Assembly (NCBI GenBank): GCA_016198585.1
Contig: JACQII010000006.1
Span: forward strand, 34,296-98,295
DNA from: Candidatus Aenigmatarchaeota archaeon
Lineage (GTDB): Archaea; Aenigmatarchaeota; Aenigmatarchaeia; QMZP01
Direction: 5' to 3'
DNA: 64,000 bases
The notes beneath the pieces were generated by a model that made no database searches, was not told the origin of the DNA, and saw only the letters and a list, made by a program, of their open reading frames with translations. Every line of letters begins with the position of its first letter. Position 1 is the first letter of the stretch. Below, one piece after another: positions 2,642 through 51,657 of this stretch. A program made the translations under genes and the position numbers.

Positions 2642-5600
2642 ATGGGTCTCGGGCGGAAGGGCACCATGGCCTGGGGCATGGTCCTCATCGCAGCCGCAGT
2701 CGTCGTGCTGGTCATGGTCACTACTGGGCCGCGCGAGGCCGCGGCCCAGGAAGGCCCATCGGCCAACTTCTCGTTCTGGGGGTACGTCAAGTACCCGAAC
2801 GGGACCTTCGTCGCCGGGGTGAACATCACCGTCGAGGCGATCAACTTCTCCGCGGCGGTGAACGGCCCGCCGCCGACCGCCCAGGTGATCAGCAACCTCT
2901 CGACCTCGACCGGCTTCTTCAACGTCTCCAACATCCTCGGCGGGCTCAACTACCAGGTCAAGATCAGGAAGTTCAACGGGACCAACGTGACCGTGAGCTG
3001 GATCGGGCCGACCCTGCCGCCGTTCCCGGACGTCTTCCTCAAGAACGACAGCTTCGGCATCGCCAACTCCACCTTCGTCCTCCAGCGCGCGGCGAACATG
3101 AACCTCAGCGTCATCAACGCCAGCGGCCAGCACCGCAACTTCACCTACCAGATCATCGACAAGAAGCTTGGCTTCCCGATCGAGACCCCGGAGTTCAACG
3201 AGAGCAAGTACGCGAACAGCAGCAAGGGCAAGATGGTCGCCGTGCCGTACAACCGCAACTACACGGTCGAGTTCTTCCCGTACCAGTCAGCGCCGCTCGA
3301 GGTCTCGGCTACCAACCTCTCTATCCAGAACACCAGCCCGGACTGCTTCAATGACGACAACTGTGACTACTTCCTGGGCATCCAGGTCAACACCAGCACC
3401 ACGCCGGTCTACGTCCACGGATTCATCAACACGACCGACTTCGGCCAGATGAACCGCTCGACGGCCAACTTCACCAACCTGAGCGTCGTCACCTACCTCG
3501 TCTTCGGCGGGGACAGCGTGATGAGCCAGGCCACCCTGCCCCCGAACATGGGCCAGTTCATCGTTCAGGTGATTGGCGGCGGCCCCAAGGACATCATCAA
3601 CGCGACCGGAACCAATGGTACCACCCCCGAAGGGGGCCCGTTCTACAACATCACCCTCCCCGGGACGACCACCGGCTTCGAAGTCCTGATGGTCTTCTAC
3701 GGCACGAGCCGCTCGGCCCAGAACATCAACGCCACCAACCTCTCCTATGTGGGCTTCCAGAACGTCACGGTCCGCGTCGGCCAGGGCAACATCGAGATCA
3801 ACCAGACCCTCCAGCGCCTCGCCGGAGCCGTGGGCGTGCAGACGTTCTCGGACACGACGATGCCGAGCATCGTGACCAACCTGACCACGATCAATCTCAC
3901 CAGTCCGGATTCCACCTCTGCAGTCGGCCAGGCCCATATGGAGGCCCGACTCACCTACACCATGATCAACACCAGCGCCTACACCCGGCAGTACCGCTGG
4001 TTCATCGAGACTGACCAGACCACCAGCACGGCCAAGATGCCGATCCCCAACACCACGACTGACCTCCGCTTCCAGATCTTCTCCCAGAACTTCGCGCCCA
4101 TCAAGAAGGACATCAGCAACGCCTTGCTCAATAGCAACGGCACGCTGAATATCAAACTCTACCAGATGGACATCAAGGACCCCGACCAAGGGGCCGGGAC
4201 TGGCGGCCTGAAGTCCAGCGTCCAGATGGTCTTCTACACGTCCTCATCGGCCTGTGATGTCCCTACGCCGCTAGCCAACTGCTCGCTGTCGAACTTCGGG
4301 TCGGCCCAGGAGTTCAACCCCATGAAGGCCATGCTCGGTGGGTCGGTGAGCCTGCGCATGACCCAGTCCACCGGCGTGACCGTCCACTACGTGAACGTCG
4401 ACCTCCTGGCGTCGGGCCCGCCCGACGCCTCGATGGACACGGACACCGACATCAACAAGACGTCCGGAACCGGCTTCGGCGAGATCTGGAAATTCGGCTC
4501 TTCCGGCCCGACAGTCTACGACTACGTCCTGATCGGCATCCCCTATACTGACGATCCTGGTGACCTGGAAGACGAAGCGACCGTGAACATCAGCATCCCC
4601 GTCTTCTATGATAACGACTGGGTCGTGATCTGGAACGCCTCGTCCAACGGGACCAACGCGTCGGCCCTCGCGGCCAACTTCACCGACTACTCCTCGAAGG
4701 CCACCGAATGGACGACCCTCATGAACAACAACACCTGCGCCACCACCCTCACCGTCCTCAATGCGACGCAGCCCTGCTTCATCAACACCAGCGAGAACAT
4801 GGTCTGGTTCCGCATCCCGCACTTCTCCGGCACCGGGCCGTCGATCACCGGCGCGACCGTGGAGACGCCGGCGACGCCGGCGCCGTCTTCCGGAAGCTCC
4901 AGCAGCTCTGGCGGTGGGGGCGGAGGCGGGTCCACCACGTCGACCGACCCCAAGGCCACCAAGATCTGGGGAATCATCAACCCGGCGACTGAGGCGACGT
5001 TCGAGATCACTAAGACCGAGATCGGGATCAGCGAGATCGCCTTCAGCGTGGCCAACCCCGCGCAGAACGTCCAGATCACGGTCCAGAAGCTTTCCGACAA
5101 GCCCGCAGCCCTCCCCGAGACCGGGACTTCGGTCTACCAGTACGTCGAGATCACCAAGACCAACCTCGAGGACAGCGCGCTCCTCGGCGCGGCCAAGATC
5201 CAGTTCAAGATCCCGAACAGCTGGCTCGCCGAGAACGGCATCGACAAGGCCGCCGTGGCGCTCCACCGCTACACCAGCCAATGGGACGCACTCCCGACTA
5301 CCCTGCTCTCCACTGACGTGAACTCCACGTCCTACCAGGCCACGACTCCCGGCTTCTCGACCTTTGCCATCGGCGGAACGCCTGCGGCTGCCCCGGTCGT
5401 TGAGTCGTGTGGTGACGGCACCTGCGACGCGGACGAGACGTTCGAAACCTGTCCGGCCGACTGCCCGGCCCCCGCGCCGGTGGCAACGTGCGTGGAAGGC
5501 GAGGTCTCCTGCCTCGGCGAGACCCCCCAGGACTGCACCGCCGGCCAGTGGGTGACACGCGAGCCCTGCACTGGCCTGGACTGCCCGGAGAACCCCTGCG

Positions 5601-5713
5601 CGGCCAGTCCTGAGACCGGCGCCGGGGAACAGATCAACCCGGTCTTCGTCGCCGTGATCGGCGTGATCATTGTCCTGGTCATCGCGGGCGTCTTCCTCTA
5701 CCGCCGCAAGTAA
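2642..5713 (+). CDS. large cell-surface glycoprotein, family A. Signal peptide, dozens of N-x-S/T sequons, Ser/Gly linker, PGF-pre-PGF-like domain, Cys-rich module, C-terminal NPVF-TM-RRK anchor
   Basis: 1023 aa. N-terminal hydrophobic signal (MAWGMVLIAAAVVVLVMV). Extreme density of NxT/NxS. SSSSGGGGGGGS linker. The ...VYQYVEI...TTPGFSTFAI block matches the PGF-pre-PGF domain pattern. CGDGTCDADETFETCPADC module. Ends ...NPVFVAVIGVIIVLVIAGVFLYRRK. TATA ATTTATTAGG about 27 nt upstream of the ATG. Confidence 0.8.
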   Translation: MGLGRKGTMAWGMVLIAAAVVVLVMVTTGPREAAAQEGPSANFSFWGYVKYPNGTFVAGVNITVEAINFSAAVNGPPPTAQVISNLSTSTGFFNVSNILGGLNYQVKIRKFNGTNVTVSWIGPTLPPFPDVFLKNDSFGIANSTFVLQRAANMNLSVINASGQHRNFTYQIIDKKLGFPIETPEFNESKYANSSKGKMVAVPYNRNYTVEFFPYQSAPLEVSATNLSIQNTSPDCFNDDNCDYFLGIQVNTSTTPVYVHGFINTTDFGQMNRSTANFTNLSVVTYLVFGGDSVMSQATLPPNMGQFIVQVIGGGPKDIINATGTNGTTPEGGPFYNITLPGTTTGFEVLMVFYGTSRSAQNINATNLSYVGFQNVTVRVGQGNIEINQTLQRLAGAVGVQTFSDTTMPSIVTNLTTINLTSPDSTSAVGQAHMEARLTYTMINTSAYTRQYRWFIETDQTTSTAKMPIPNTTTDLRFQIFSQNFAPIKKDISNALLNSNGTLNIKLYQMDIKDPDQGAGTGGLKSSVQMVFYTSSSACDVPTPLANCSLSNFGSAQEFNPMKAMLGGSVSLRMTQSTGVTVHYVNVDLLASGPPDASMDTDTDINKTSGTGFGEIWKFGSSGPTVYDYVLIGIPYTDDPGDLEDEATVNISIPVFYDNDWVVIWNASSNGTNASALAANFTDYSSKATEWTTLMNNNTCATTLTVLNATQPCFINTSENMVWFRIPHFSGTGPSITGATVETPATPAPSSGSSSSSGGGGGGGSTTSTDPKATKIWGIINPATEATFEITKTEIGISEIAFSVANPAQNVQITVQKLSDKPAALPETGTSVYQYVEITKTNLEDSALLGAAKIQFKIPNSWLAENGIDKAAVALHRYTSQWDALPTTLLSTDVNSTSYQATTPGFSTFAIGGTPAAAPVVESCGDGTCDADETFETCPADCPAPAPVATCVEGEVSCLGETPQDCTAGQWVTREPCTGLDCPENPCAASPETGAGEQINPVFVAVIGVIIVLVIAGVFLYRRK

Positions 5714-13832: not shown

Positions 13833-13909
13833 AGGCGCTAACGAGCCTGCGGACCACTGCCCTCCGGTCTCTGCGAAAAAGATGAGCGATCCTTACCTGG
13901 GCTGGCCAG

Positions 13910-14653: not shown

Positions 14654-14707
14654 TGTTTAGACAAGAGATATAAATCCTTGCTGACGCGTGCCGCTGAAAA
14701 TCCGCGC

Positions 14708-15232: not shown

Positions 15233-15255
15233 AGGAATCCTCTCAAGATGCGCGA

Positions 15256-15353
15256 GCGGACCCGGTGGGGATTGAACCCACGGCCTCTCCCTTAGGAGGG
15301 GAGCGCTCTGATCCAATTGCCCACGCCGTTGGCGGCGTTCTGAGCTACGGGTC
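15256..15353 (-). tRNA. tRNA-Arg (anticodon CCU) with a probable ~22-nt intron in the D-loop
   Basis: Reverse complement GGACCCG-TA-GCTC-[AGAACGCCGCCAACGGCGTGGGCAATTGGATCA]-GAGC-G-CTCCC-CTCCTAA-GGGAG-AGGCC-GTGGG-TTCAATC-CCCAC-CGGGTCC-G. Perfect 7-bp acceptor stem, 5-bp anticodon stem, T33-CCT-A37, canonical T-loop TTCAATC. The D-loop is ~22 nt too long and contains an internal CGCCG-CCAA-CGGCG hairpin. No encoded CCA. Confidence 0.7.
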
Positions 15354-15435
15354 CGTGCTTAACATTGCCGCGGATGGTTTATATTCGGACCTTGCCCCGC
15401 CGGCCCGTTTATTAGTCGGCCGGCTAATACTCGAC

Positions 15436-16104
15436 ATGCAGCAGCTGGCCGCGCTTCTCCTGCTCGTTGCCGTTTCAGGGTGCACCACCTCGGTAACTGG
15501 CGATGCGGCCGCGGAGCCGCGCCCGATCGAGATCCAGGTCGAAACCGTCATCCCTGATCCTTGCGCCAACGTAACCTGCGCCCCTTCCCTCCTCAGCTGC
15601 CCGGACGGCACGACCGCCCGGTGTGACAACGCCTGTGCGGCCGGCAGCTGCTCGGCCTGCACACCGGCCTGCGCGAACCCGGGCTGTGCGGAGGACTGGG
15701 AGTGCACACCCTGGAGCGCGTGCGAGAACGGGACGCAGCAGCGATCCTGCCTTGAGCTGAACGGCTGCGGGACCGCCCTTGCGAAGCCCGGCCTCACCCA
15801 GGACTGCTTCTCCCTCGCGATCATTTCAGTCGACGCCGCCGGCGAGCGCGCCGTCATCAGGAATCTCGGCCTGACGGCGGCCAACCTACAGGGATGGACG
15901 TTGCGGGACGCAGCCGGCCATGTGTTCACCTTCCAGGCCTTCATCCTCCAGCCAGGGAGCGAGGTCGCCGTCGTGAAAGGGACCGGACCAGACACGGCAG
16001 CGACCCTGTCCTGGGGCAGCAACGTGAACGTCTGGAACAATGACGGGGACATCGCGACCTTGGCCGACGCCGAAGGGAACGTGGTGAGCGAACTCGCGTA
16101 CTGA
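15436..16104 (+). CDS. lipoprotein with Cys-rich region and C-terminal lamin-tail-like (LTD) domain
   Basis: MQQLAALLLLVAVSGC lipobox. About 25 Cys within ~90 aa. The C-terminus ...IRNLG..NLQGWTLRDAAGHVFTF..L.PG..VVV..G....W...NVWNNDGDIATLADAEGNVV matches the lamin-tail-domain pattern. The track ORF starts further upstream and overlaps the tRNA. Confidence 0.65.
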   Translation: MQQLAALLLLVAVSGCTTSVTGDAAAEPRPIEIQVETVIPDPCANVTCAPSLLSCPDGTTARCDNACAAGSCSACTPACANPGCAEDWECTPWSACENGTQQRSCLELNGCGTALAKPGLTQDCFSLAIISVDAAGERAVIRNLGLTAANLQGWTLRDAAGHVFTFQAFILQPGSEVAVVKGTGPDTAATLSWGSNVNVWNNDGDIATLADAEGNVVSELAY

Positions 16105-16106
16105 AC

Positions 16107-16649
16107 TCACTCGGGCTGGCCGGCGCAGTCCTCGCAGAGCCACTCGCCGCCCTCGTTCCGCAGGTCATCGGCGTAGCCCTCGCATCCCTCGCAGATGCCC
16201 GAGAGCCGGGTATCCCTGCGCGGTGCAACGCGTTCGACCCGGGCCTTGAGCTTCTCCGAGAGGACGTCGATCATTTCCGGGGCGGTGAGCAGGATCTCCT
16301 TGTCGGTGACGATGCCCTGCAGGCGGCCCTCCTTGACGATGGGGATGCGCTTGACCTTGCTCTTGATCATGAGCTTGACCAGGTCCAGAATCTTCTCCTC
16401 TGGAGAAGCTGAGATGAACCGGCGGCCGGCCAGGTCCTTGACCCGCGCCTGCTTGGGGCTCTCGCCGCGGGCGATGATCCCGACGAGGTCCTCGCTGGTG
16501 ACGATCCCGACCGGCTTCTGGCCGTCCAGGACTACCACCGAGCCGATCCTGTTGGACGACATGATCTTGGCGACCTCGTCCATCGTGAAGCTCGGCTCGA
16601 CCGTGACCACATACTTGCGCATGACGTCCTTCGCGCGGATGGTGCTCAT
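16107..16649 (-). CDS. CBS-domain pair protein with C-terminal zinc ribbon
   Basis: Two CBS motifs (...VVVLDGQKPVGIVTSEDL..., ...RIPIVKEGRLQGIVTDKEIL...) and CEGCEG...CEDC at the C-terminus. Confidence 0.75.
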   Translation of the reverse strand: MSTIRAKDVMRKYVVTVEPSFTMDEVAKIMSSNRIGSVVVLDGQKPVGIVTSEDLVGIIARGESPKQARVKDLAGRRFISASPEEKILDLVKLMIKSKVKRIPIVKEGRLQGIVTDKEILLTAPEMIDVLSEKLKARVERVAPRRDTRLSGICEGCEGYADDLRNEGGEWLCEDCAGQPE

Positions 16650-16703
16650 GAGGAGTCTTAGGCAGCCAGACTTAAATGCGCCGCCCTCTCCGGGGGTCTA
16701 GGG

Positions 16704-16777
16704 ATGGAAAATATATCCATTCTGTGTGAAAAATATTCCATTTTTTGACCGATTCCTTTATATGGATTCCGTCCATA
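16704..16777 (+). promoter_or_regulatory. two inverted repeats ATGGA-N7-TCCAT (16704..16720) and ATGGA-N5-TCCAT (16763..16777) in a divergent promoter region; the second overlaps the TATA/TSS of the 94-aa ORF
   Basis: Read directly: ATGGAAAATATATCCAT and ATGGATTCCGTCCAT. Additional TCCAT/ATGGA half-sites at 16736 and 16786. Confidence 0.55.
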
Positions 16778-16786
16778 GCGACGTAA

Positions 16787-17071
16787 ATGGATGATGATTC
16801 TGAGAAGCAGGAGTCTCTTCTCTTGGATCACTTCAAGGCCATGACCCCAGAGGAGAAGAAAGGCGTCCGCGTCTATTTTAGCCCCAAATACAGCCTCTAC
16901 ATCTTCGAGCACGCGGACGGCCAGATGGGCATCGGCTCCTCCCTGGGAAACGGCCGCGGCTTCATCTATTTCCACCCGCGGCTGGGCAAGCTGGTGACCA
17001 GCCAGCACTTTTCCATGGACAACCTGATTTCGCTCCTGGACCGCGAGAATGTGGTCAAGATCGGGGACTAG
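16787..17071 (+). CDS. small hypothetical protein (94 aa)
   Basis: ATG 25 nt downstream of TATA-like TTTATATGG; unbiased composition; paired inverted repeats upstream. Confidence 0.55.
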   Translation: MDDDSEKQESLLLDHFKAMTPEEKKGVRVYFSPKYSLYIFEHADGQMGIGSSLGNGRGFIYFHPRLGKLVTSQHFSMDNLISLLDRENVVKIGD

Positions 17072-17086
17072 CTCCCTTGGTCTCCG

Positions 17087-20000
17087 TTATCTGCCGTGGC
17101 CTTTCCAGGAGAACCGCTTCCGTTTCCGGTGCAGCGGGTGGTCTGTATGTGGGGTCCGGCGGGGCTTGAGCTTGCCGATGCCCCTCGTGATCCACCGACC
17201 GAGGGCGCGGGGGCTCAGCCGCTCCCGCAGCAGCGAGGCCCGGCGCTGCCTCGTCTCAGTCAGCAGGCTGCGCGTCTTAAGGATCTTGGCCTGGCCCTCG
17301 GTGAGGATCGTGTTGAAGGTGTTCTCGTCGATGATCCGCTTGAAGTACTGCTTCTCGGTTTCCACCCGCGTGTTCACCAGGGTCTTCTCCTCGCGGGTGA
17401 GGCGCATGATCTCCCTACCCATGCGGATGAACGGCGCCAGGATCTCGGCGACCAGGTAGGTCGCCAGGAGGATGACGATCGCCCCGAAGAGGATGATCCA
17501 CCGGTTCTCGAGGAGGAACTTGGTGATGGAGAGTTCAAAGAGTTGGCTCTCAGCTGCGTTGATGGAGTCGGCCGCGTAGTCCAGATTGGCCTCGAGGAAC
17601 CCAGGTTGGTCGGCCGCGATGTTCTTCTTCGCGTCCTCGAGGGCCGCCGCGACCCCGTCGGCGATGCTCTTCAAGCCCTCGACGCTCACGCCCGCTTCCT
17701 CGTACTGGGCGACCGTCTCCTGGAGCGCGGCCAGCTGCTGCTCCAGCTCGGCGATCTGGGGGATCAGCGCGTTCTCGAGGACCGTGACCTTGACTGCCTT
17801 GGTCTGCACGAGGCTCTTGAAGCTGAGGTTGAACGTGACCAGGTAGCTCCCGGTCGATTGGGTGAGCGGAGCCCGGATGGCCACGGCGACATCCACCCCT
17901 GCCTTGGGCAGCAGCTCGAACGCTGGGACTGCGGAAACCTCGCAGCATTGCTTGTCCACGACCGCAACCAGCTGCAGCAGCTGGTCGCCGGTGTTGGCGA
18001 CGCTGAGGATGACGCTCTCATTGCTACCCTGGATGAGCTCCAGCTCCACGGGGAAGGCGGTCAGGTTGAAGTCGAACACGCCCAGGCAGGCCGGAACAGC
18101 GATGCACTGGGAGGTCAGGTTGTTGCAGCCGACCGGGTTACAGACCCTGGTCTGGAACATCTGGTCAGGACTGCAGAGCCCGATCCCGCAGCCCTGGTTC
18201 ACCCATTCGCCGCACGTGCAGCCGGGGACGCCAGCGCCTCCCCCACCCCCGCCGCCTCCGCCCGAGCTGCCGCCTGACGAGGGCGTCGTCGTGGAGAGGG
18301 CAAGGTTCGCACTGCCCGTGTTATTGAAATCGTCTGTTGCATTTGCCGCGAGGACGAAGTTCGCTCCGTTCTCATCCTTCGCCCGGCAGGTCTGGGAGGT
18401 GTTCTGGTAGACATCCCCGGTCCCGTTCGAAATCATGAATGCCACGTTCGGGCACGTCAGGTTCGCGCTCACCAGGTAGGTGAGGTTCTCGTTCCGAACG
18501 TTCCTGATCAGGACCTGCGGGTTCGGGTCGGAAATGATCTGGTTAGCCGAGTAGCTTCCCCCAGCTGCGGGCTGGGTGAACGTCAGGACTAGGGACGCGG
18601 AGACATTGAAGGTGTAATTCAGGGCCAGCGTGCGGCCTTCCTTGCTGATGTTGATCGCAACCGTCCAGTTCCCAGCCGGATCCGAGGGGAGGATGGGCAG
18701 CGAGAAGTTGTTGGCGATCCCGCTCAGGTTCACCACCGAGGATTGATTGAACTTGGTCACGTTGACCGTCCACCTCACCTCAGTGACCGTTCCGTTCAGG
18801 CTGTCGATGACCGTGAAGTTGATGCTCTCCCCACGGTTATAGATCGTCCGGTTCACGGTCACATTGATCTTCTCGATCTCCACGATGCTGAGGTTGGCCG
18901 TGGTTGTATTTGATACTGATGCAGAGTACCAGATACCGGGCTGGTTAGTGATGCTACAATTAAAGCTCACGTTAAAGGTCGTCGAATTCACCAACGAAGT
19001 GGTATCGAGATACAGCCAGGAAGCCAGACCGGAAGAGTTGGTAAGGTTGTATCCAAGCAAGGTGTTATTCTTCCAGAAGCTCACATTGTAGCTCGGAATC
19101 ACCGCCGTCGAGTTCGAGTCTGTGACATTGCAGTATATGGTGACGTTACTGCCGTTAAGTATGCTCGTTGGGGAACTGAACGTGATGTTCCTTGCGTCCG
19201 CGTCCCCCAGGAGGGCAAAGGACTTGGACGCCGATGTTCCATTTTCCTGACCAAAGGTGTCTGTCGCATAGATCGCCGTGATATTGACTATTCCAGCGCG
19301 CGGGAATTGTGTATAGTTCGTGAGATTCAACGTGACATTTGTCCAGTTCCCCGTGAATGACGTGATTACGCTGTAATTCACGAACGTTCCGGTGGCATTG
19401 TGTTCGATTGTGGCGTTCAGCACGTTGTCGGTTATCCAAAGGGCTGAGGCTGTGAGGTTGTCGTTGCGGGTGAAGTTGATTCCATTACTGATGTTCTGTG
19501 TCGTGTCGTTTTTTATAGTGAAATTGAAGACGTTGTGAGGGGTACGATAGGTAATGTTGACGCGCACAAGGTCTATGCGGAGTTGCTTCACCGCTCCAGT
19601 TTGCGTATAGTTAAGTCTTACTGTGATGTTCTCAGTAAGCAACTGGGTTGATGTTATATTTGTAATGTTCAGTTTTATTAGTTCGTCGGTAGTGCCAGGA
19701 CATGTTGTATCATTCACAATATTCCACGAGCCATTAAAGACTTCGATAAAACATTTCGGAGTATTCAATAAGCTCGAGATGGACCATTCAACTTGTAACT
19801 CAACATAGAGAATGACGCTTCCGTTTAATAACTTTGTACTATTGAGTACAACTGTTAGATTTGCTGATCTACTCGATGAAACACTGAGACCAGAATCCGC
19901 ATAGATATCATCGCTAATGTTGACTTGATCGCAAGTGCAGGTTCCTTCTGCTCCAGAGTCGCCACAACTCAGAATTTGTGTGCAGTTTTGAAAAGATTGG

Positions 20001-20092
20001 GGATTTGAAACACCTGGTGATCTGACCAAGACCGCTAGAAACGAAATGAAGAGAAGGATAGATACAAACAATATCCCTCTTCTAATTTCCAT
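17087..20092 (-). CDS. large cell-surface glycoprotein, family B. Signal peptide, >50 N-x-S/T sequons, poly-Gly linker, Cys module, coiled coil, TM helix, ~110-aa basic cytoplasmic tail
   Basis: 1001 aa. The N-terminal ~410 aa are encoded by low-GC DNA. SSGGSSGGGGGGGGGAGVPGCTCGEW linker. Coiled coil IPQIAELEQQLAALQETVAQYEE. TM WIILFGAIVILLATYLVAEILAPFI followed by an R/K-rich tail. Confidence 0.8.
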   Translation of the reverse strand: MEIRRGILFVSILLFISFLAVLVRSPGVSNPQSFQNCTQILSCGDSGAEGTCTCDQVNISDDIYADSGLSVSSSRSANLTVVLNSTKLLNGSVILYVELQVEWSISSLLNTPKCFIEVFNGSWNIVNDTTCPGTTDELIKLNITNITSTQLLTENITVRLNYTQTGAVKQLRIDLVRVNITYRTPHNVFNFTIKNDTTQNISNGINFTRNDNLTASALWITDNVLNATIEHNATGTFVNYSVITSFTGNWTNVTLNLTNYTQFPRAGIVNITAIYATDTFGQENGTSASKSFALLGDADARNITFSSPTSILNGSNVTIYCNVTDSNSTAVIPSYNVSFWKNNTLLGYNLTNSSGLASWLYLDTTSLVNSTTFNVSFNCSITNQPGIWYSASVSNTTTANLSIVEIEKINVTVNRTIYNRGESINFTVIDSLNGTVTEVRWTVNVTKFNQSSVVNLSGIANNFSLPILPSDPAGNWTVAINISKEGRTLALNYTFNVSASLVLTFTQPAAGGSYSANQIISDPNPQVLIRNVRNENLTYLVSANLTCPNVAFMISNGTGDVYQNTSQTCRAKDENGANFVLAANATDDFNNTGSANLALSTTTPSSGGSSGGGGGGGGGAGVPGCTCGEWVNQGCGIGLCSPDQMFQTRVCNPVGCNNLTSQCIAVPACLGVFDFNLTAFPVELELIQGSNESVILSVANTGDQLLQLVAVVDKQCCEVSAVPAFELLPKAGVDVAVAIRAPLTQSTGSYLVTFNLSFKSLVQTKAVKVTVLENALIPQIAELEQQLAALQETVAQYEEAGVSVEGLKSIADGVAAALEDAKKNIAADQPGFLEANLDYAADSINAAESQLFELSITKFLLENRWIILFGAIVILLATYLVAEILAPFIRMGREIMRLTREEKTLVNTRVETEKQYFKRIIDENTFNTILTEGQAKILKTRSLLTETRQRRASLLRERLSPRALGRWITRGIGKLKPRRTPHTDHPLHRKRKRFSWKGHGR

Positions 20093-20940
20093 CTTCGAAT
20101 CCCTCCGTGATTTCCTCGATATATATAATAGGGAGGGATTATTAGAATAGCACAGAAAGATTCAGAGATCTGATGGAAGAGAAAGTTCTAGAAAGGGCTA
20201 ACAGAGGGATAATCGTCCTGAACCTGAAGTCCAATTCCCGGATCCGTATAGAAAGAGTCACAAATCATATCTGAATTGTCATCAACACAGCCTTCCGAAG
20301 ACTCGTCAAAGTTTGACCAGTAGTTGCCACTCTGTCCAGAGATCCAGATATTAGAAGTAGCTGAAGTGCTCAGGTAGACCTGATTCAAACCGTCATTATT
20401 CTCGATGAAGTTATTGCTATAAATAGCGTTCCCAGTAGTGGAAAAAAGCATCTCAAGACCAGCGATAGAATTGAATGTAATATCATTGCTTGCTATTACA
20501 CTATCTTTAACGCCATCAAAGCCCATTCCGCCAGCAAGATTTTCGCTAATAACATTGGAATAGATATTGTTCGTCATTGTGTTTCCACCAAAAACTCCAT
20601 ATCCGTCATTTCCAAAGACATTATTATCGTAAATATTGAATCCGTCTCCTCCTGACCACGAAATTCCGTGTTCTTCGTTACTAAACACTACAAGATTACG
20701 CAAAATAACATTATCTGATCCCAAATCGTCAAATACTCCAACAGCGAAGTCTCTGATGCTGAGATCTTCTACCACGAGTTGCGATCTCCCGTTGAGATTA
20801 ACGCCTACATCCGCATCGTGGTCGTCGTTACCATCAATCGTGAAGCCACCGCCATTGAAGACAACATTGTCCGCGTTGAAAGTGGCGCATGTACCGTCAA
20901 AGTTGTTGATTGTTTGGGTGAGCGTCACTTTGTCAAAATA
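18860..20940. other. ~2.1-kb low-GC (~40%) codon-atypical block spanning the 3' part of the beta-helix gene, the intergenic promoter and the 5' ~1.2 kb of the giant glycoprotein gene
   Basis: Sharp composition shift at both ends inside continuous ORFs. Third codon positions are A/T-rich within the block and G/C-rich outside. Confidence 0.7.
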
Positions 20941-22020
20941 GCCGTTCAGCCTGTCGCTGGCCTCCGTGCAGGAGGCCGCTGTCGCCGTCAGGTAGACCGT
21001 GAAGGGGATTTGGGGGGTGTCGGTGACTTTGCCGGCGAGGTCGACCGCGTGGAAGGTGACCTCGTGGCTGCCGCGCGCCAGGCTGACCTGGACTTCCCAG
21101 GTGTTCCCCGCCTGCTGGACCATCGAGAGGAAGGGACTGCCGTCGACCGAGTAGGTCGCTTGCTCGAGAGGCTCGTTCACGGTCATGGAGAGGGTGACCG
21201 GGGCAGGGGCGACGTTCACCGGCCCGTTGATCACCTGGCCGACTGTCGGGGACGTGGCGAGGATGGCCGGAGCGAGGTCGATGGTGAACAGCCCGACCGC
21301 CGTGGTGGGCTTGCTGGCGAGATCGATCGCCAGGACCTGGACCATGTAGTCGCCGCCGAGGGTAGTCGAGGTGAACATGCCTTCGTACGTGCTGCCGCTC
21401 GGTGTGAGCGTGACCTGGGTGACCGAGAGATCAGGAAGCGTGACCTCAGCCGTGACTGAGGCGATCCCAAAGTTGTCCGTCACCTCGGCGGTGACCGTCA
21501 CCGGTTCGTCCTGCTCGAAGGTCTCCCCGTTCGGGACCAGGACGGTGACTTCAGGGGGGGTCGTGTCAACGACGGCGAACCCGGACAGGGCGATGCCGCT
21601 GGGCGCGTTCAGGATCTTGGGTTTCGCCACGACCTGGAGAGCATATTGGCCGAGCTCGACCGGGTTGAACGTGGCCTCATAGACGTTGCCGTTCTTGAGC
21701 ATCTGCAGGATCTGTGGGCCGCTGGGGGTGTCCAGAGTGGCTTTCACCGAGACCAGGGAACCGGCGTAGGTGACCTGGGCCTGGATCAGGACTTGACCAG
21801 GATATTCTACTTGGAGATCAGGAAGAGGGCTCAGGATGGTTACGATCGGTCCCGGCTGGGAGGGCAAGGTCGTCGGCTTCGGCCGGCCGCTGGTCGCGAT
21901 CGAGGGAGAGCTGGACCCGAGTCCGCTATAGGTAGATAGTTGAGCGGCAGCGAGCTGGGCAATCGCCAGCGTCGACGCTAGGAAGACTCCCATGACCACC
22001 AGGATGACGAGCTTCTGCAT
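20188..22020 (-). CDS. secreted protein with Ig-like domains and a C-terminal right-handed parallel beta-helix (PbH1/CASH, NosD-like) domain
   Basis: Signal peptide MQKLVILVVMGVFLASTLAIAQLAAAQ. Repetitive N.I..N.. units (ILRNLVVFSNEEHGISWSGGDGFNIYDNNVFGNDGYGVFGGNTMTNNIYSNVISEN...) characteristic of beta-helix repeats. The beta-helix part lies in the low-GC block. Confidence 0.7.
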   Translation of the reverse strand: MQKLVILVVMGVFLASTLAIAQLAAAQLSTYSGLGSSSPSIATSGRPKPTTLPSQPGPIVTILSPLPDLQVEYPGQVLIQAQVTYAGSLVSVKATLDTPSGPQILQMLKNGNVYEATFNPVELGQYALQVVAKPKILNAPSGIALSGFAVVDTTPPEVTVLVPNGETFEQDEPVTVTAEVTDNFGIASVTAEVTLPDLSVTQVTLTPSGSTYEGMFTSTTLGGDYMVQVLAIDLASKPTTAVGLFTIDLAPAILATSPTVGQVINGPVNVAPAPVTLSMTVNEPLEQATYSVDGSPFLSMVQQAGNTWEVQVSLARGSHEVTFHAVDLAGKVTDTPQIPFTVYLTATAASCTEASDRLNGYFDKVTLTQTINNFDGTCATFNADNVVFNGGGFTIDGNDDHDADVGVNLNGRSQLVVEDLSIRDFAVGVFDDLGSDNVILRNLVVFSNEEHGISWSGGDGFNIYDNNVFGNDGYGVFGGNTMTNNIYSNVISENLAGGMGFDGVKDSVIASNDITFNSIAGLEMLFSTTGNAIYSNNFIENNDGLNQVYLSTSATSNIWISGQSGNYWSNFDESSEGCVDDNSDMICDSFYTDPGIGLQVQDDYPSVSPF

Positions 22021-22166
22021 GCTTCCCTTCCCTGAACGCCTCTTGATTTTTCGCTTAATAAAGGTGTATCACGGTGTTGTGTTAATTACTTGGTAGTGAC
22101 AGTATTTAAAGCTTTCCAGGCGCCCAAAACCGCCCTTTTAAGGGCCGGAGCGAATATAATATCTGC

Positions 22167-22895: not shown

Positions 22896-22944
22896 CCCCT
22901 TCTTTGTAGGGAGCTTCTGGAGAACACAAAAAATACTTGCGACC

Positions 22945-23628: not shown

Positions 23629-23743
23629 GGTATATTATGGGTCGCGGCCTCTTAAGAGCTTGTGAGACCGGCCAGCGACCGCGAAGAAGCGCGCACAAGA
23701 GCGGTCCTGCAGCTATTTTAAGCTTGCAGCCCCATTGGTGTCC

Positions 23744-24857: not shown

Positions 24858-25043
24858 ATGGACATCCGCGGCAGGCTGCGGGACTATCGGCGCGTGCTCC
24901 AAATCGCGCGCAAGCCCACGAAGGATGAGTTCACCACCTCGGCCAAGGTCACCTCGGTCGGGCTGCTGATCATCGGCTTCATCGGCTTCCTCATCTTCCT
25001 GCTCTTCATCGCCAGCTGCAGCATGGCCGGCATCTTGTGCTGA
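24858..25043 (+). CDS. secE: protein translocase subunit SecE / Sec61-gamma
   Basis: 61 aa, ...[33 protein letters not shown] single C-terminal TM. Conserved position upstream of spt5-rpl11. Confidence 0.75.
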
Positions 25044-25055: not shown

Positions 25056-25433
25056 ATGCGTTTCTTGGTAAAGAAAATCGTTGTTGATAGAGGCGTAAGT
25101 TTGACGGCGTCGCCAGACTCCACTAAATACGAGTTGAATGATATAAAGCGTGCCTGGGTAGATTGCGAATTAACGAATGGAGAGACCTCTGAGATCACCC
25201 TAATAATTGAAGGAATTAATCGTGGACGATACCTCACGATAAGTATAAAGAAAGGCTCAATTGAAACGCGTCATGCAATGATAATATTACTTAAAGCGCT
25301 TTTTAACCTTCTTCAAAAGAAGCCGTTTAACCCTATTGATTCTTCGGGAAATATTTGTATCTTAAGCGTAGACGAACTGGAAATTCTTGGAGCTTTACAT
25401 AAGATCAAGGATATGGGAGGTCTTGACATCTAA
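25056..25433 (+). CDS. hypothetical protein encoded in low-GC island
   Basis: 125 aa; ~33% GC with AT-rich third positions, in contrast to the flanks. Confidence 0.5.
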   Translation: MRFLVKKIVVDRGVSLTASPDSTKYELNDIKRAWVDCELTNGETSEITLIIEGINRGRYLTISIKKGSIETRHAMIILLKALFNLLQKKPFNPIDSSGNICILSVDELEILGALHKIKDMGGLDI

Positions 25434-25507: not shown

Positions 25508-25969
25508 TCATCCCATGGTGATTTTTTCGCTAAGAAAGAAGGAGATGAAAAAAAGAAATATGATATATAATAAAGAGAACGTGGTATAAAACAAATAGTC
25601 AGAAACCAACATTTTAGAATATATGAACACATCATGAGCGATGAGTGATACAGAAACACTAGAAGTGAGTAGATTGAAATCTTTTTCTGACAAATAGTTT
25701 TCCTCTCTGACAGTAACCTTCTTTTTGATTCCTAATAGTTTAGTGAGCTTACTAAGAATAACATAGACAGGAAGAGAAAGGTGCTTTATAACAAAGGTGT
25801 AAGACAGAGTTAGTAAGAAGTAAGAGGCAATGGCCATCAGAAAAGGAAAGCTCTGAACAGAGACTTCAATGTTGAAGGAACTCGTGAGGATCTTCGCGAG
25901 AAATCCCACAATCACAGATGTTAAAGCAAGGGAGATTTCGGGCCTCTTTGTGTCATAGTCAATAGACAT
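25508..25969 (-). CDS. hypothetical 4-TM membrane protein encoded in low-GC island
   Basis: 153 aa, several hydrophobic helices, ~30% GC. Confidence 0.5.
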   Translation of the reverse strand: MSIDYDTKRPEISLALTSVIVGFLAKILTSSFNIEVSVQSFPFLMAIASYFLLTLSYTFVIKHLSLPVYVILSKLTKLLGIKKKVTVREENYLSEKDFNLLTSSVSVSLIAHDVFIYSKMLVSDYLFYTTFSLLYIIFLFFISFFLSEKITMG

Positions 25970-47304: not shown

Positions 47305-50300
47305 CTACCGGAACTCGCCGAGGCGGCGCTGGGCTTTCTTCTTCTTGAAGAGCCGGCCGAAGACGCCGCTCTTGGGGGCGGTGTAGCCGCTGGCGGGCTT
47401 GAACCGGTCATAGCCCGACGCGTACTTGGTGATCTTCTCTTCCTTGGCGCGAGGCGGCTTGGGCGACCGTTTGAAGAGGGAGAAGCCCTTCTTCTCCGGG
47501 GAACGGAACCCTTTCCCTGAGCTGAAGCCCCGCCGGGCAGGGAGCATGAGGTAGACTAGGACAGCAGCGACGCCGATGATGACCACGACGATAATGATCA
47601 GCGACGTGTCGAAGGCGAAGGGGAGGCCGCCCGCACCCGAGGGATTGATCTTGCCCTGGATCTCCAGGATAGTCGCCTGCAACTCCTCGATGAGCTCGTT
47701 CGCGGTGATGTAGTCGCCCGCGTCCAGAGCAGCTTGGATTTGGGCCTTGAGGGAGGCCATCTTGTCCACGAGGCCGGTGATCTCGTCCACCTGGTCGGCA
47801 GGGATCTGGCCGGCCGTGATGAGGGCGGCGACCTGGCTCTCCAGCGCATCGGCGGTGGGGGTCAGGTTGGCGTACGCCTCCTGGATCTCGGCCTTCTGCT
47901 GCTCGTTCGGCGCGACCGAGAAAGTGAAGGACTGGGAGGTGGAAGCGTCGGTCGCGAACGACGGGTAGGCCTTGAACGTCCCGTCATAGTGGGCCACCTT
48001 GGTCGTGGCGGTCGTGGTGAAGGTCACGGTGAAGTTGCAAGGAGTCGTGCAGGTCTCATGGTCGATGGACGTGGAGATGTTATCGATGAGAGTCTCCAGT
48101 TTGGTGCTGATCGTCTTCGCGTTGCCCTCGGACACCTTGATGAAGGCGGTCACTGTCTCGCCGGCGACGACCGAGAGGTTGGCGGGGTATTCGTCAATGT
48201 TCACGTCGTAGCCGACGCAGGCGTGGTCCTCGATATACTCAGAGGATGTGCAGTCCAGGGCCGTGCAGGTGCTGGAGACGCATGCCTGGTTGGCCGCGCA
48301 GCCCGCGTTCGTGCTGCAGGTCGTCGAACTGCTCGAGGAACTCGAACTCGTGGTCGATGAGGTGGTGGAGCCTCCGGTTTCCGTCACGGTCAACGTGATG
48401 CCGGTCACGTTGGCGTACGTCGCCCGGGAAGCGGTCACGTTCATGCTCGAGCAGGCGGTCGTGGAGGTGACGTTCTGGGCCGTCAGCTTGAACCGGAACC
48501 AGCAGCCAGTGGGAACCTCCTTTCCGATAGTAAAGGTGAAGGGGTTGTCGTTCGTGATGGATGAGCACTGGGAGCCGCCGTTTTCCACCTGGCCCGATGA
48601 ATCGGCGGTCACGGTGACCGGGCAGTTGCCCTTGTTGAACGTCAGCGTCGCGGCCACGGCAGGTAGCGGTCCGAAGTTGGCCACGGTGACATTGATGAAT
48701 GCCGTGCCGGTAGCCTCATTTATGCTCCCGAGGGTCGGAGTGGTCACGGCGGTGAGGTTGAGGCCGGTCTCGTTGATGACCAGGCTGTCATTCGACCCAG
48801 TGCCGAAGAGGGATGTGGCCGTACTGTTGGACTGGTTGGTGTGCCAGCTGATGTTGGTGTAGACACGGTAGCGGCCGCCTATCGTCGTATTGGGGATGGA
48901 GGCGTTGATGTTGCACACGTTCTGGGTGCTGGCTTCGTCTCCCTCGCACAAGGCGGAGTAGGAGGCCTTGATGTCGGTCAGGGTGACCGAGTAATCGGTG
49001 CGGTTGGTCTCCACGATCCACACGGTGGTGAAGTTGGTCACATTCGCAATGCCTCCTTCAGACGGACCGGGGACGCTGACAAAGGAGCCGTTCGCGAGAC
49101 TCGCCCGTATCTGCAAAGAGATGTTCGCACTCTCGTTCTGTGGGTACCAGACGTATGCGTACAAGGGGTTTCCATCGGTCATCGTGAGGAACCGGGTGCT
49201 GATCTTGCTGATCGTGGTGTTGAGGCGGTCGGTGAGGTTCAGCTCGAAGGAGATGTTGATGATGTCGTAGGGGTAAGAGGAGGCGCTCACGTTCGTGACG
49301 TTCGATGAGTTGATGACGAGCCAGCCCACATACAGGCCGGGGGCCTTGACTGTGCTGTTCATGGTCACGTTGAAGGTCAGATTGATCTGGTTCTGGGAGT
49401 TGGCGTTAACCGTTCCGTTGGGCATGAAGGCGATGCTGACGTTCACGGTCTTGGTGCTGTCTGTGCTAAGGGCGAGCTGCATGGCAAGGGAAGTGATGTT
49501 CGAGGAGGTGTTCGTGAAGTTGATCATGGAACCGCCAGTGTTGTTGAGCTGGACGCTCACCGAGATGTTCTTGTCGTAGCCGATGTTGTCGGTCTTCTTC
49601 AGCGTCGTGCTGTTGGAGAAGTTGCCGTTCACCAGCAGTATCCCGGCAGCCACGTCGAAGGTGAAGGGCAGCTTCACCTTCCAGCCAGACCCATTGGAGT
49701 AGGTGAAGAACCCTTCGTACGTGCCGTTGAGGAGCTGGTAGCGGGGCACGGTGACGGTTGCCGTGACGTTGTGGCTCATGTTATCCGCGTCGGGCCCGAT
49801 GGCCGAGGAGCTGTTGAAAGAAGCGTTGAGCGTGGTGAGGTTGAAGCTCGAGTTGAGCCAGGCAGACTCGCTCAGGTAGACCAGCAGCGAAAGGTTGTAC
49901 GGGTTCAGGGACGAGTCCTGGGAAACGTTGATGACCGACACGTTCCAGATGCCCTGGTTCTCGGGGTGGAACGGCCCTTCGAAGATGATAAACTCCTCGC
50001 GATGCAGGTTGCTTGCGTTCGCGGGTCCAGCCTTTGTCGTGGAGTTGAGCTGTGTGGTCCCGTTCGGACTGGTGAGGAAGAGGTCCCAGTCCGTCGCAAT
50101 CCCACTCACATTGTCCCACTCGAGACGGACCTTGATCTTGGTGGTGAAGTTGGGAACGATGAAGTCGACCTGCTGCGGGCTCGTCTGGTGGAGGAAGCGC
50201 TTGATGTTGTAGATCTCCCTGGTTTCGACTAGGCCCGCCAGCACGACATCGTCCATGTTCTTGAGGCGGAAGAACGATCGATTGGTCTCGTTCGGCTTGA

Positions 50301-51657
50301 GCGGTGCCTCGCCAAACACCAGCTTGCGCACCTCCTTGAGGGTGTTGCTCATGTTCGTGACGTTGATGGTCGCGAAGAAGATGCGACCAGTATAGCTCGA
50401 AGATGTGTTCGCCAACCGGATCTCCCACAGCTTGCCCGTCCCGTTTGCGGGGAGGAAGAGGGTGACCTCCTCGGTGAGACTGCCGTTGTTGATGGACGAG
50501 GCCAAGAATTCCGTGTCGTTGAGGAGGAAGAGATCTACATCACCCGAGAGGCCGGAGACATTGATCGTGACCGTGGTCAGGTTGAGGTTGCTGATGCCGC
50601 TATTCTGGCTCATGTTCGTGAAGAAGAAGAAGCTGTTGTCGCCACCCGAACCGTTCCCCAGGAACGATGCGGTGTTGTTTCCGGGCACGAAGGTGTTGTT
50701 TGCATTGATGCTGATGTGGACGACGATCGGCAGGTGGATGCGCTCCGATTCATTCGTCACGTTGCGGATGGCCACCGTCCCCCGGTAGAGGCCGGGCGGA
50801 CAGAACTCGTTCACGAAGAGGCTGAAGGCGGTGACATTGGTTTCGTTCAGCAGCTGGCTCACGTTGGTCGCGGTGGGGCCGCGGAAGACCGTGAAGTCCA
50901 TGCCCGTGTCCGTTCCGCTGCCGAAGCAGATGACCCGATTCCCGGACGAGAAGCCGGAGAACGCGCTCACCCCGTAGTCGCTGGTCGTGAAGTAGACCGG
51001 CGTCACGTTCGTGGTCTGATTCTCCACAAACACCTGGCTGAAGGTTGCGTTGTTGGTCTCCACGAGAACCGTCCCGTTGGACCAGTTCAGCCGCAGGGAG
51101 TTCGTGTCCGTGGAGAACGACCGGTTGCTCGACGAGACGAGACCAGTGACACGGATGGTGATGACCGAGGTGTTGAGGGCGACCGTGGTGTCATTGTACT
51201 GGGCGGTGATGGTGAGGTTATAGGTTCCTTCACCCGTGGCGGCGATGGCTTTGAAGGAGAAGTTGTGAGTCGCATTAGACGCAATGAGCGCGAGGTTGCC
51301 GCTCGACGTGTTCCAGCTGATATTCTGGCCGTAGGTGGTGAACGTCGTGTTGGCCGGGCCAGTGGTGGTGTTGGTGCCGTTCACGAACGTGAACCCTTCG
51401 GGGAGGGTGATGTTGATGGTGGTGATGTTGAGCCCGAAGACCGACCCGGTGGTCTGGTTGAAATTGGTGATCGAGATGTTGAAGAGGCGGAGCGTCGAGG
51501 GGTAGATCTTCGAGGTGTTGACGGCGAGGGAGCTGTTCAGCTGGGTCGCGGAGAAGGGCACGGCCAGGGTTGAGATCGAGAAATGGATGACCAGCAAGGA
51601 GAGCAATGCCACTGCAATAAGCCACCCTTGCCGAGATCGACCGGAAACCCTCCTCAT
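47305..51657 (-). CDS. giant (1450 aa) cell-surface glycoprotein, family B. >90 N-x-S/T sequons, Ser/Thr/Gly linker, Cys module, coiled coil, TM, ~80-aa basic tail
   Basis: Signal MRRVSGRSRQGWLIAVALLSLLVIHF. TGGSTTSSTTSSSSSSSSTTCSTNAGCAANQACVSSTCTALDC. Coiled coil ...LKAQIQAALDAGDYITANELIEELQATILEIQ... TM LIIIVVVIIGVAAVLVYLML then PARRGF...KKKKAQRR tail. Confidence 0.8.
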   Translation of the reverse strand: MRRVSGRSRQGWLIAVALLSLLVIHFSISTLAVPFSATQLNSSLAVNTSKIYPSTLRLFNISITNFNQTTGSVFGLNITTINITLPEGFTFVNGTNTTTGPANTTFTTYGQNISWNTSSGNLALIASNATHNFSFKAIAATGEGTYNLTITAQYNDTTVALNTSVITIRVTGLVSSSNRSFSTDTNSLRLNWSNGTVLVETNNATFSQVFVENQTTNVTPVYFTTSDYGVSAFSGFSSGNRVICFGSGTDTGMDFTVFRGPTATNVSQLLNETNVTAFSLFVNEFCPPGLYRGTVAIRNVTNESERIHLPIVVHISINANNTFVPGNNTASFLGNGSGGDNSFFFFTNMSQNSGISNLNLTTVTINVSGLSGDVDLFLLNDTEFLASSINNGSLTEEVTLFLPANGTGKLWEIRLANTSSSYTGRIFFATINVTNMSNTLKEVRKLVFGEAPLKPNETNRSFFRLKNMDDVVLAGLVETREIYNIKRFLHQTSPQQVDFIVPNFTTKIKVRLEWDNVSGIATDWDLFLTSPNGTTQLNSTTKAGPANASNLHREEFIIFEGPFHPENQGIWNVSVINVSQDSSLNPYNLSLLVYLSESAWLNSSFNLTTLNASFNSSSAIGPDADNMSHNVTATVTVPRYQLLNGTYEGFFTYSNGSGWKVKLPFTFDVAAGILLVNGNFSNSTTLKKTDNIGYDKNISVSVQLNNTGGSMINFTNTSSNITSLAMQLALSTDSTKTVNVSIAFMPNGTVNANSQNQINLTFNVTMNSTVKAPGLYVGWLVINSSNVTNVSASSYPYDIINISFELNLTDRLNTTISKISTRFLTMTDGNPLYAYVWYPQNESANISLQIRASLANGSFVSVPGPSEGGIANVTNFTTVWIVETNRTDYSVTLTDIKASYSALCEGDEASTQNVCNINASIPNTTIGGRYRVYTNISWHTNQSNSTATSLFGTGSNDSLVINETGLNLTAVTTPTLGSINEATGTAFINVTVANFGPLPAVAATLTFNKGNCPVTVTADSSGQVENGGSQCSSITNDNPFTFTIGKEVPTGCWFRFKLTAQNVTSTTACSSMNVTASRATYANVTGITLTVTETGGSTTSSTTSSSSSSSSTTCSTNAGCAANQACVSSTCTALDCTSSEYIEDHACVGYDVNIDEYPANLSVVAGETVTAFIKVSEGNAKTISTKLETLIDNISTSIDHETCTTPCNFTVTFTTTATTKVAHYDGTFKAYPSFATDASTSQSFTFSVAPNEQQKAEIQEAYANLTPTADALESQVAALITAGQIPADQVDEITGLVDKMASLKAQIQAALDAGDYITANELIEELQATILEIQGKINPSGAGGLPFAFDTSLIIIVVVIIGVAAVLVYLMLPARRGFSSGKGFRSPEKKGFSLFKRSPKPPRAKEEKITKYASGYDRFKPASGYTAPKSGVFGRLFKKKKAQRRLGEFR

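Follow-up and report, generated by a model that had tools for sequence, protein, structure and literature searches.

Introduction

O-antigen and capsule loci, which are low in guanine plus cytosine (GC), and the central domains of flagellins are exchanged through conserved flanks, and in the amelioration model of Lawrence and Ochman, a horizontally acquired island of atypical GC content slowly drifts to the composition of its host. The cell-wall island GI1 of the archaeon Haloquadratum walsbyi encodes surface glycoproteins and has a variable part between anchors, an atypical composition and assembly breaks (PMC4535781). In DPANN archaea, the targets of diversity-generating retroelements (DGRs) are surface proteins with a localized sequence anomaly (PMC5758913). 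Finally, the hypothesis of GC-biased gene conversion (gBGC) links recombination in prokaryotes to the GC content at the third codon position (GC3), and under it a non-recombining segment would have a low GC3, with the rest of the genome, non-coding DNA included, being GC-rich; recombining genes have a higher GC3 in 11 of the 14 bacterial groups tested (Lassalle et al. 2015, PMC4450053). Here, we describe a 64,000-nucleotide stretch of DNA (the window) from a metagenome-assembled genome (MAG) of a Candidatus Aenigmatarchaeota archaeon (assembly GCA_016198585.1, contig JACQII010000006.1, positions 34,296 to 98,295), in which an AT-rich tract covers the end of a NosD-like gene and the beginning of the neighboring gene for a predicted surface glycoprotein. 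What is best supported is that this tract is a conserved surface module of two domains whose GC content departs from that of its genome. The tract has long belonged to this gene pair and was not grafted in recently from foreign or phage DNA.

The locus resembles the O-antigen, capsule and flagellin systems in its product type, layout and composition. It also shares the features of GI1 named above, but its unit consists of two adjacent domains of two genes together with their spacer (~1.35–2 kb) and not of whole genes. Moreover, its content is orthologous in all the relatives, no co-existing alleles were seen, and its compositional borders are kept across lineages that have diverged by ~55% in protein and appear to have undergone separate rises in GC. 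Like the DGR targets, it is a DPANN surface protein locus with a localized anomaly; however, no template/variable pair was found at 16400–26400 (reverse-transcriptase genes were not specifically searched), the tract measures 1.3–2 kb instead of ~100–150 bp, and it shows a shift in composition, not adenine-specific variation. The atypical GC, GC3 and codon usage recall an ameliorating island, and a true AT-rich insertion lies 5 kb away, but the tract is present in relatives, has no tRNA genes or border repeats, has syntenic orthologues as its nearest homologues and has not converged in composition despite saturating divergence. As for gBGC, the difference published for bacteria amounts to a few percent between genes, whereas here it reaches 0.5 GC3 within single genes of an archaeon and has sharp borders.

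The AT-Rich Tract and the Two Genes That It Joins

The mean GC content of the window is ~0.63 and that of the MAG is ~64%. Between ~19400 and ~20900, GC falls to 0.37–0.45, compared with 0.59–0.67 on either side (300-bp windows). On a 1-kb scale, the only outliers in the window are 19001–21000 (GC 0.43–0.45) and 25001–26000 (0.38), and the only long runs below 0.50 GC across the 64 kb are 18801–20950 and 25001–26200 (200-bp window). The borders in GC3 were placed using maximum-likelihood change points, the support for which is given as a log-likelihood difference (dLL). One change point, at 20938, lies in the NosD-like gene (20188..22020, minus strand), where GC3 falls from 0.84 to 0.43 (dLL 58). 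Another, at 18902, lies in the glycoprotein gene (17087..20092, minus strand), where GC3 rises from 0.53 to 0.87 (dLL 73). A third change point at 19592 divides the tract into a core with a GC3 of 0.36 and a shoulder with a GC3 of 0.65.

The core (19592..20938, minus strand; GC3 0.36–0.43 over its parts) holds NosD-like residues ~361–610, the intergenic spacer and glycoprotein codons 1–166, and the shoulder (18902..19591, minus strand) holds glycoprotein residues 167–396, over which GC3 forms a plateau at 0.65. The remaining parts of both genes are host-like. These are 20941..22020 (minus strand; NosD-like residues 1–360, GC3 0.84) and 17087..18901 (minus strand; glycoprotein residues 397–1001, GC3 0.87), the latter also having GC at the first codon position (GC1) and Gly/Ala/Arg/Pro content (GARP) raised with the genome GC. 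Along the NosD-like gene, GC3 is 0.8–0.9 and then 0.26–0.42 across the final ~200 codons; along the glycoprotein gene, it is 0.32–0.40 at the start, 0.6–0.72 on the plateau and at least 0.86 past codon ~400. Against a background of 556 windows of 100 codons from 43 other genes (mean GC3 0.876, standard deviation 0.057), the z-scores are −8.5 for the beta-helix part of the NosD-like gene, −9.0 for glycoprotein residues 1–166 and −3.9 for the shoulder. The overall GC of the tract is 0.40, which is below that of the intergenic DNA of the window (0.58).

The original prediction, made from the DNA letters alone, had placed a drop of GC at ~20940 and its recovery at ~18860, in good agreement with the change points at 20938 and 18902. 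The sliding-window analysis of GC and GC3 confirmed the trough that it had described (GC 0.37–0.45, z down to −9.0). Its account of the contents, namely the beta-helix domain, the intergenic promoter region and the signal peptide with the N-terminal domain, also holds, as does the codon anomaly. Both open reading frames (ORFs) are continuous through the GC junctions, as it had stated.

Amino-acid composition as the cause of the low GC was considered and rejected. The window encodes three other sequon-dense surface proteins (4.5–6.8 sequons per 100 amino acids), the genes of which are located at 2642..5713 (plus strand), 47305..51657 (minus strand) and 57296..59800 (minus strand) and carry 46, 97 and 57 sequons, respectively. 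Their GC3 is uniformly high (0.76–1.00 throughout, N-termini included). The ratio of the asparagine codons AAC and AAT is 8:18 and 6:8 in the tract, compared with 69:6 to 118:21 in these three proteins. Since other sequon-rich proteins stay high in GC3 and the synonymous codons flip, the anomaly is not a by-product of an Asn/Ser/Thr-rich protein.

The NosD-like gene encodes a predicted secreted protein of 610 amino acids with a signal peptide, immunoglobulin-like (Ig-like) domains and a C-terminal right-handed beta-helix. An identical protein, MBI4020967.1, is recorded for a Candidatus Aenigmarchaeota MAG, on a 98-kb contig. A Pfam search found Big_7 (residues 156–220), Big_13 (297–342), NosD (387–572) and Beta_helix (406–555), the last two past their curated thresholds (NosD PF05048, 52.6 bits with a cut-off of 23.6; Beta_helix PF13229, 49.1 bits with a cut-off of 25.9). 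The C-terminal domain therefore matches the profile of the NosD/CASH proteins. Unlike NosD, the protein shows no sign of a role in nitrous-oxide reductase maturation; it is predicted to be secreted, joins Ig-like domains to a beta-helix and is encoded beside a surface glycoprotein gene. The N-cap block of the beta-helix (residues ~351–400), directly upstream of the GC3 drop, has ~50% identity to its orthologues, and the drop begins ~50–60 codons into the beta-helix domain, past this conserved N-cap.

The spacer between the genes (20093..20187, minus strand) has a length of 95 bp and a GC of 0.38. Its T-rich runs past the NosD stop codon, the TATA-like run (TATTATATATAT) at 20130–20119, 27–38 nt upstream of the ATG, and the GGAGG at 20106–20102 suggest that the glycoprotein gene has its own promoter.

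The glycoprotein gene encodes a predicted N-glycosylated type-I membrane protein of 1001 amino acids. It begins with a signal peptide and contains tandem beta-sandwich domains and 62 sequons, together with a Gly run at residue 605, a Cys-rich block at 625–669, a transmembrane helix at 865–888 and a conserved basic cytoplasmic tail. Eleven sequons are found in residues 1–166, 28 in residues 167–396 and 22 in residues 397–700; thus, although the original prediction named a hyper-sequon domain within the low-GC block, sequons are not confined to the tract. Conservation and sequon density (12.2 sequons per 100 amino acids) are both highest in residues 167–396. There are 30 invariant alignment columns in residues 195–294 versus 4 in residues 1–194. 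In the structure predicted for residues 1–420 (pLDDT 66), beta-sandwich domains follow one another in a chain, and the first of them ends near residue 183. A fold search with this model returned only generic tandem beta-sandwich matches in the PDB, i.e., adhesin- or macroglobulin-like arrays with a TM score of at most 0.24. Judged by its predicted features, the protein carries the hallmarks of archaeal surface (S-layer-type) glycoproteins, namely a signal peptide, dense sequons and a C-terminal membrane anchor, and the products of both genes are probably exposed at the cell surface. It should be noted that the 1001-amino-acid translation from the first ATG is missing from the protein collection that holds its 610-amino-acid neighbor; the annotation may use another start or omit the gene.

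Recurrence of the Trough at Homologous Borders

Scans of metagenome and genome collections added ~50 loci to the comparison; in the following, L001–L065 label loci or contigs of relatives as well as Logan assemblies. Most members of the family are AT-rich (29–40% GC), and the mean GC of the phylum Aenigmarchaeota is 32–39% (PMC8407114). Because of this, low GC is likely ancestral, and the genome of the window would belong to a derived lineage in which GC was raised. Its nearest relative is L060, with a KaiC protein 81% identical and a GC of ~0.68; this contig ends inside the tract.

The same trough is found in the other relatives in which GC has risen. In L003, the GC3 of the NosD-like gene is 0.6–0.86 and then 0.22–0.30, and that of the glycoprotein gene is 0.30–0.32 and then 0.82. 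The corresponding values are 0.5–0.7, then 0.26–0.40, and 0.26–0.36, then 0.6–0.8, in L004, and 0.4–0.57, then 0.13–0.23, and 0.30–0.38, then ~0.6, in L005/L064. The NosD-like gene of L037 is patchy, with a GC3 of 0.20–0.28 in mid-gene, followed by a glycoprotein gene with 0.18–0.38 and then 0.9. In L042, there is no upstream NosD-like gene, and the GC3 of the glycoprotein gene is 0.32–0.42 and then ~0.7. In all, the GC3 of the trough is 0.10–0.47 (mostly 0.2–0.4) against backgrounds of 0.57–0.90, and the floor is similar whatever the genomic level.

The borders also fall at the same residues. Expressed in residues of the window protein, the change points of the glycoprotein gene are 183 in L003, 203 in L004, 169 in L005, 178 in L037, 170 in L042 and 190 in L043, compared with 166 for the inner change point of the window, and even the low-GC L001 has a weak step at residue 176. 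This border coincides with the end of the first predicted domain. On the NosD side, GC3 falls at window residues ~400–430 in the window, L003, L004 and L064 when placed in a common alignment, and in L060 it goes from 0.8–0.9 to ~0.5 at the same residues, just ahead of the contig end. In the GC-rich relative L038 (139..10467), the glycoprotein homologue lies within an ORF of 3442 amino acids, a homologue of the N-terminal domain is not detectable and there is no deep GC3 trough.

The exemption is not limited to synonymous sites. GC1 and GARP of the host-like part of the glycoprotein are 0.57 and 26% in the window, compared with 0.41 and 17% in L001 and 0.34 and 14% in L006, and thus scale with genome GC. 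In window residues 1–166, they are 0.39 and 14%, as in the low-GC relatives. Because the same residue borders and the same floor recur in every GC-raised relative, we take the low GC to mark a segment untouched by the GC-raising process and not a fresh import.

Orthology, Trees and Searches for a Donor

Full-length homologues of the glycoprotein are 43–48% identical over 90–97% of its length. The identity of the window to its nearest relatives is 36–43% in residues 1–166, 50–56% in residues 167–396 and 40–46% in residues 397–1001, i.e., it is roughly even along the glycoprotein and does not jump inside the tract. Orthologous domains lie at the same locus in L001, L003, L004, L005/L064, L007, L037 and L060. 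Judged by these alignments and by synteny, the low-GC domains are orthologous to the domains of relatives and are not unrelated imports.

Neighbor-joining trees with bootstrap were built for the tract and for the sequence outside it. L003 and L005 form a sister pair both in the tract (93.5% bootstrap) and in the sequence outside it (100%), with identities of 55% and 57%, respectively, and genomic GC3 values of 0.78 and 0.58. No strongly supported conflict between the tract and flank trees was found. The low-GC L001 and L007 group nearer to the window than the GC-raised L037 does, although with weak node support; this placement suggests repeated rises in GC that spared the same segment on each occasion.

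When the beta-helix domain was used to search 1.84 billion representatives exhaustively with HMMER, the best non-self match was 43% identical, at least two of the top matches were syntenic orthologues, and no donor lineage for the tract was found. Scans of IMG/VR and tblastn searches of GenBank phages gave no viral relatives. Border repeats, inverted repeats and DGR-type pairs were represented in 16400–26400 by short chance-level matches only. There were no tRNAs and no Rfam matches in the window, and no paralogous (silent) copy of the tract was found within its 64 kb. No integrase was detected among the Pfam-scanned neighbors, a search aimed at integrase or mobility genes not having been made. 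Thus, of four signs of an acquired island, the tract shows the atypical composition; three, i.e., absence from relatives, donor or phage homologues and border signatures, were not found. As the synonymous sites are saturated and the trough is present in several lineages, it must be actively maintained or repeatedly renewed, and a single recent graft does not fit.

Gene Neighborhood

The neighbors of the pair in the window encode two KaiC-like ATPases, polyprenyl synthetase, SecE, Spt5, a CBS protein and a lamin-tail-domain (LTD) protein. The order shared by the relatives is LTD, CBS, NosD-like, glycoprotein, KaiC, KaiC, polyprenyl synthetase, SecE and Spt5. Between the fixed CBS and KaiC genes, the NosD–glycoprotein pair is inverted in the window and in L060, whereas it is directed towards KaiC in L003, L004, L037 and L064; L001, where the flip is limited to the NosD-like gene, has this gene divergent, with the beta-helix at the N-terminus (residues 65–223). 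No inverted repeats flanking the pair were found in the window. The beta-helix domain adjoins the 5′ end of the glycoprotein gene in every arrangement seen: it is C-terminal where the NosD-like gene is co-oriented (the window, L003, L004 and L064), lies in a short co-oriented gene in L037 and is N-terminal in the divergent gene of L001.

Several other features of the window and its relatives were recorded. In the AT-rich relative L006 (13039–15147), the KaiC-like gene beside the glycoprotein gene has an intein with a LAGLIDADG endonuclease domain. Glycoprotein homologues were found in MAGs labeled as a Pirellulales bacterium (L043, CAZZAX010000116.1) and Heimdallarchaeota (L049, JAEOTG010000287.1), a filing that is probably due to binning contamination. 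The three sequon-rich proteins of the window have modules in common: the N-termini of the 1450- and 834-amino-acid proteins are 38% identical over ~200 amino acids, and the C-termini of the 1023- and 834-amino-acid proteins are 51% identical over 224 amino acids.

A second AT-rich tract of ~1.07 kb (window 25044–26116, GC 0.38) lies between secE (24858..25043, plus strand) and spt5/nusG (likely start ~26117). In the relatives L001 and L063–L065, secE and spt5 overlap or are at most 45 bp apart; therefore, this tract is a true insertion in the lineage of the window. It contains two orphan ORFs, 25056..25433 (plus strand, 125 amino acids) and 25508..25969 (minus strand, 153 amino acids, hydrophobic), with no Pfam and no viral match. 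The left junction of the insertion is confirmed by the Logan contig L058, which extends to 25499; L059 ends at 25060.

Possible Causes of the Low GC Content

The observation itself is robust and somewhat surprising, and its mechanism is one that we infer. As the cause, we favor exemption from a recombination-dependent GC drive, to which we assign a probability of about 0.45, presumably because the module is left out of ordinary homologous gene conversion. The module, i.e., the beta-helix domain, the promoter spacer and the signal peptide with the first beta-sandwich domain, would have been inherited vertically and would keep the AT-rich composition typical of Aenigmarchaeota. Meanwhile, the rest of the genome, including non-coding DNA, would have been driven to high GC by gBGC between members of the population. 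The linked outward-facing domains would be handed down together as whole, matched alleles that fail to pair with different ones, and conversion tracts would stop in the conserved blocks flanking the module, which would then drift to an AT-biased mutational equilibrium. The two domains may be co-adapted surface or host-contact parts.

The module is flanked by the best-conserved blocks of both proteins, namely the NosD N-cap (351–400) and glycoprotein residues 195–294. As the exemption from gBGC expects, the GC (0.40) and GC3 (0.36–0.43) of the tract are below both the intergenic GC (0.58) and the GC3 of genes (0.88), and the raised intergenic GC fits conversion better than codon selection. A further-reaching version sees in the module a true lineage-spanning exemption from the GC drive and a "supergene" of two co-adapted genes that is cold for recombination and serves surface or host recognition in DPANN archaea; this version is tentative and, on the whole, rather unlikely.

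Several observations weigh against the proposed exemption. In the NosD-like protein, the N-terminal Ig-like part has diverged faster than the beta-helix (28–37% identity to L060, with similarity to most relatives undetectable) and yet has a GC3 of 0.84–0.9, which means that rapid divergence is not enough to lower GC. The GC3 steps are sharp (at most 50 codons) and the plateau of 0.65 in the window is flat, which looks more like discrete recombination ends than a diffusion gradient. In L037, ~95 GC-rich codons interrupt the trough of the beta-helix gene. The true insertion 5 kb away indicates that AT-rich DNA can enter this genome. Four contigs of the L005 lineage, each from a different sample, show at least 99.96% identity, also in the portion of the tract common to them, and no co-existing alleles were seen. 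Finally, we know of no demonstration of gBGC in archaea so far.

The main rival is recurrent resetting, in which the module is swapped whole via its conserved flanks from a pool of alleles that is AT-rich, as most Aenigmarchaeota are, and the fairly recent homologous imports have not yet reached the genome GC. We consider it unlikely. It is the idea of the original prediction narrowed to the homologous modules of relatives: conserved blocks do bracket the module as expected for cassette exchange, but the replacement of native domains by foreign DNA in this genome is unsupported. Swapping would account for a variable part between conserved anchors with sharp GC3 steps falling at these anchors, and the two-level profile of the window (core 0.36, plateau 0.65) could stem from exchanges that happened at different times or from a donor whose GC was intermediate. 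The GC1 and GARP of the tract are untouched by GC pressure, and the nearby insertion shows the uptake of AT-rich DNA. L037 is relatively nearer to the window inside the tract (41%) than outside it (33%). Furthermore, the orientation of the block varies among lineages, so the locus does rearrange, and the cell-surface islands of Haloquadratum diversify through homologous recombination (PMC4535781). However, no donor was found; the best non-self matches are those given above for the beta-helix and for glycoprotein residues 1–166, and as synonymous sites are saturated at 36–43% identity, any sampled source is older than the time that composition takes to equilibrate. L003 and L005 are still sisters in the tract, with the same relative identity as outside, and the trees are free of strong conflict. 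The anchors themselves have only ~70–77% DNA identity between lineages, which makes them a poor substrate for homologous recombination. Relatives may occasionally have exchanged the whole homologous module, and the shoulder of the window, which is weak in L004 and missing in L003 and L037 (GC3 0.82–0.96), could be the trace of such an exchange.

Selection for an AT-rich nucleic acid near the start of the glycoprotein gene seems still less probable. It could act through DNA melting or a protein-free promoter region, through weak mRNA structure or through slowing by rare codons for secretion and beta-helix folding. The trough is indeed tied to position, being roughly centered on the spacer (~600–750 bp per side) in the window, L003, L004 and L064; the unrelated, divergent HAD-hydrolase gene upstream of the glycoprotein gene in L042 also has a low GC3 (0.41 versus 0.6–0.7), and the weak step of the low-GC L001 falls at the same residue. 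On the other hand, the trough far exceeds the length of known promoter or start-codon effects, the ~95 codons of L037 that adjoin the spacer are GC-rich, and the three other highly sequon-rich secreted proteins of the window show no dip, even at their N-termini. Codon positions 1 and 2 and amino-acid composition are exempt too, not just the synonymous sites. The floor of ~0.3 is reached whether AT-ending codons are rare, as in the window, or not, as in L005, whereas selection for rare codons predicts otherwise.

A single recent in-frame replacement by the DNA of a phage or an unrelated low-GC archaeon, as originally proposed, is improbable. The strong contrast in codon usage (z ~ −9), the open frames and the second AT-rich insertion nearby would suit it, but no fewer than six further lineages, the nearest relative among them, have this trough at the corresponding residues (L003, L004, L005/L064, L037 and L042, with its beginning seen in L060), and the domains are orthologous within conserved synteny. 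The phage origin found no match in IMG/VR or among GenBank phages; when the beta-helix part of the segment was searched alone, it retrieved syntenic orthologues among its top matches and no donor, and the surroundings of the tract are free of border repeats, tRNA genes and DGR repeat pairs. The same locus in relatives, the comparators being no nearer than 81% KaiC identity, holds orthologous AT-rich domains.

The integrity of the assembly was judged using the Logan contigs L058, L059 and L062, which are independent assemblies of the window's own sequencing runs. L062 corresponds to window positions 6107–19722 at 100% identity and crosses the change points 18902 and 19592, so the glycoprotein-side junctions are independently confirmed. 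L058 covers 20985–25499 and L059 covers 21373–25060; 19723–20984, including the NosD-side junction at 20938, is spanned by none of the retrieved Logan contigs. Contig ends cluster in or at the tract, namely at 20985 and 19722 for the window, ~90 codons into the beta-helix in L060, at the NosD-side border in L064, at glycoprotein codon 168 in L063 and mid-tract in L005 and L065. The clustering could result from low coverage of AT-rich DNA or from alternative alleles. The tip of L062 is a Nextera adapter (TGTGTATAAGAGACAG), and Nextera XT strongly under-covers low-GC DNA (PMC6796507). The breaks were not accepted as a sign of co-existing alleles and are not counted as polymorphism because of this under-coverage and the identity of at least 99.96% among the four contigs of the L005 lineage. 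An assembly chimera of a GC-rich and an AT-rich organism, which the contig ends in the window and in its relatives might otherwise suggest, is very unlikely and hardly credible, because the reading frame is kept at both junctions, which lie within orthologous domains, the mosaic is seen again in L003, L004, L037, L042 and L064 from other studies with apparently different assemblers (by contig names), and stretches as different in GC3 as 0.9 and 0.35 have no long k-mers in common that could be mis-joined; L062 crosses both glycoprotein-side change points, and the adapter and under-coverage can account for the breaks.

Significance

Low-GC patches in GC-rich genomes are routinely taken for recent foreign DNA. 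Since a patch with the same borders persists here across lineages with genomic GC3 values of 0.24–0.9, this default is wrong at this locus. In practical terms, metagenome assemblies of these archaea break at such tracts.

Should the GC drive indeed spare the module, a rare within-gene control would be available for the old question of whether biased conversion, selection or mutation sets prokaryotic GC content, and archaea have barely been explored in this respect. If it is, moreover, a co-adapted supergene, its GC3 floor of ~0.3 would report the mutational equilibrium and the rest of the genome would report the strength of recombination-dependent biased conversion. The module would then be a built-in control showing that the repeated rise from ~35% to 64% GC is due to biased conversion and not to selection or mutation. 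The beta-helix and the tip domain of the glycoprotein are likely the business end of the surface of these host-dependent archaea, which makes them candidates for studies of host attachment or virus evasion.

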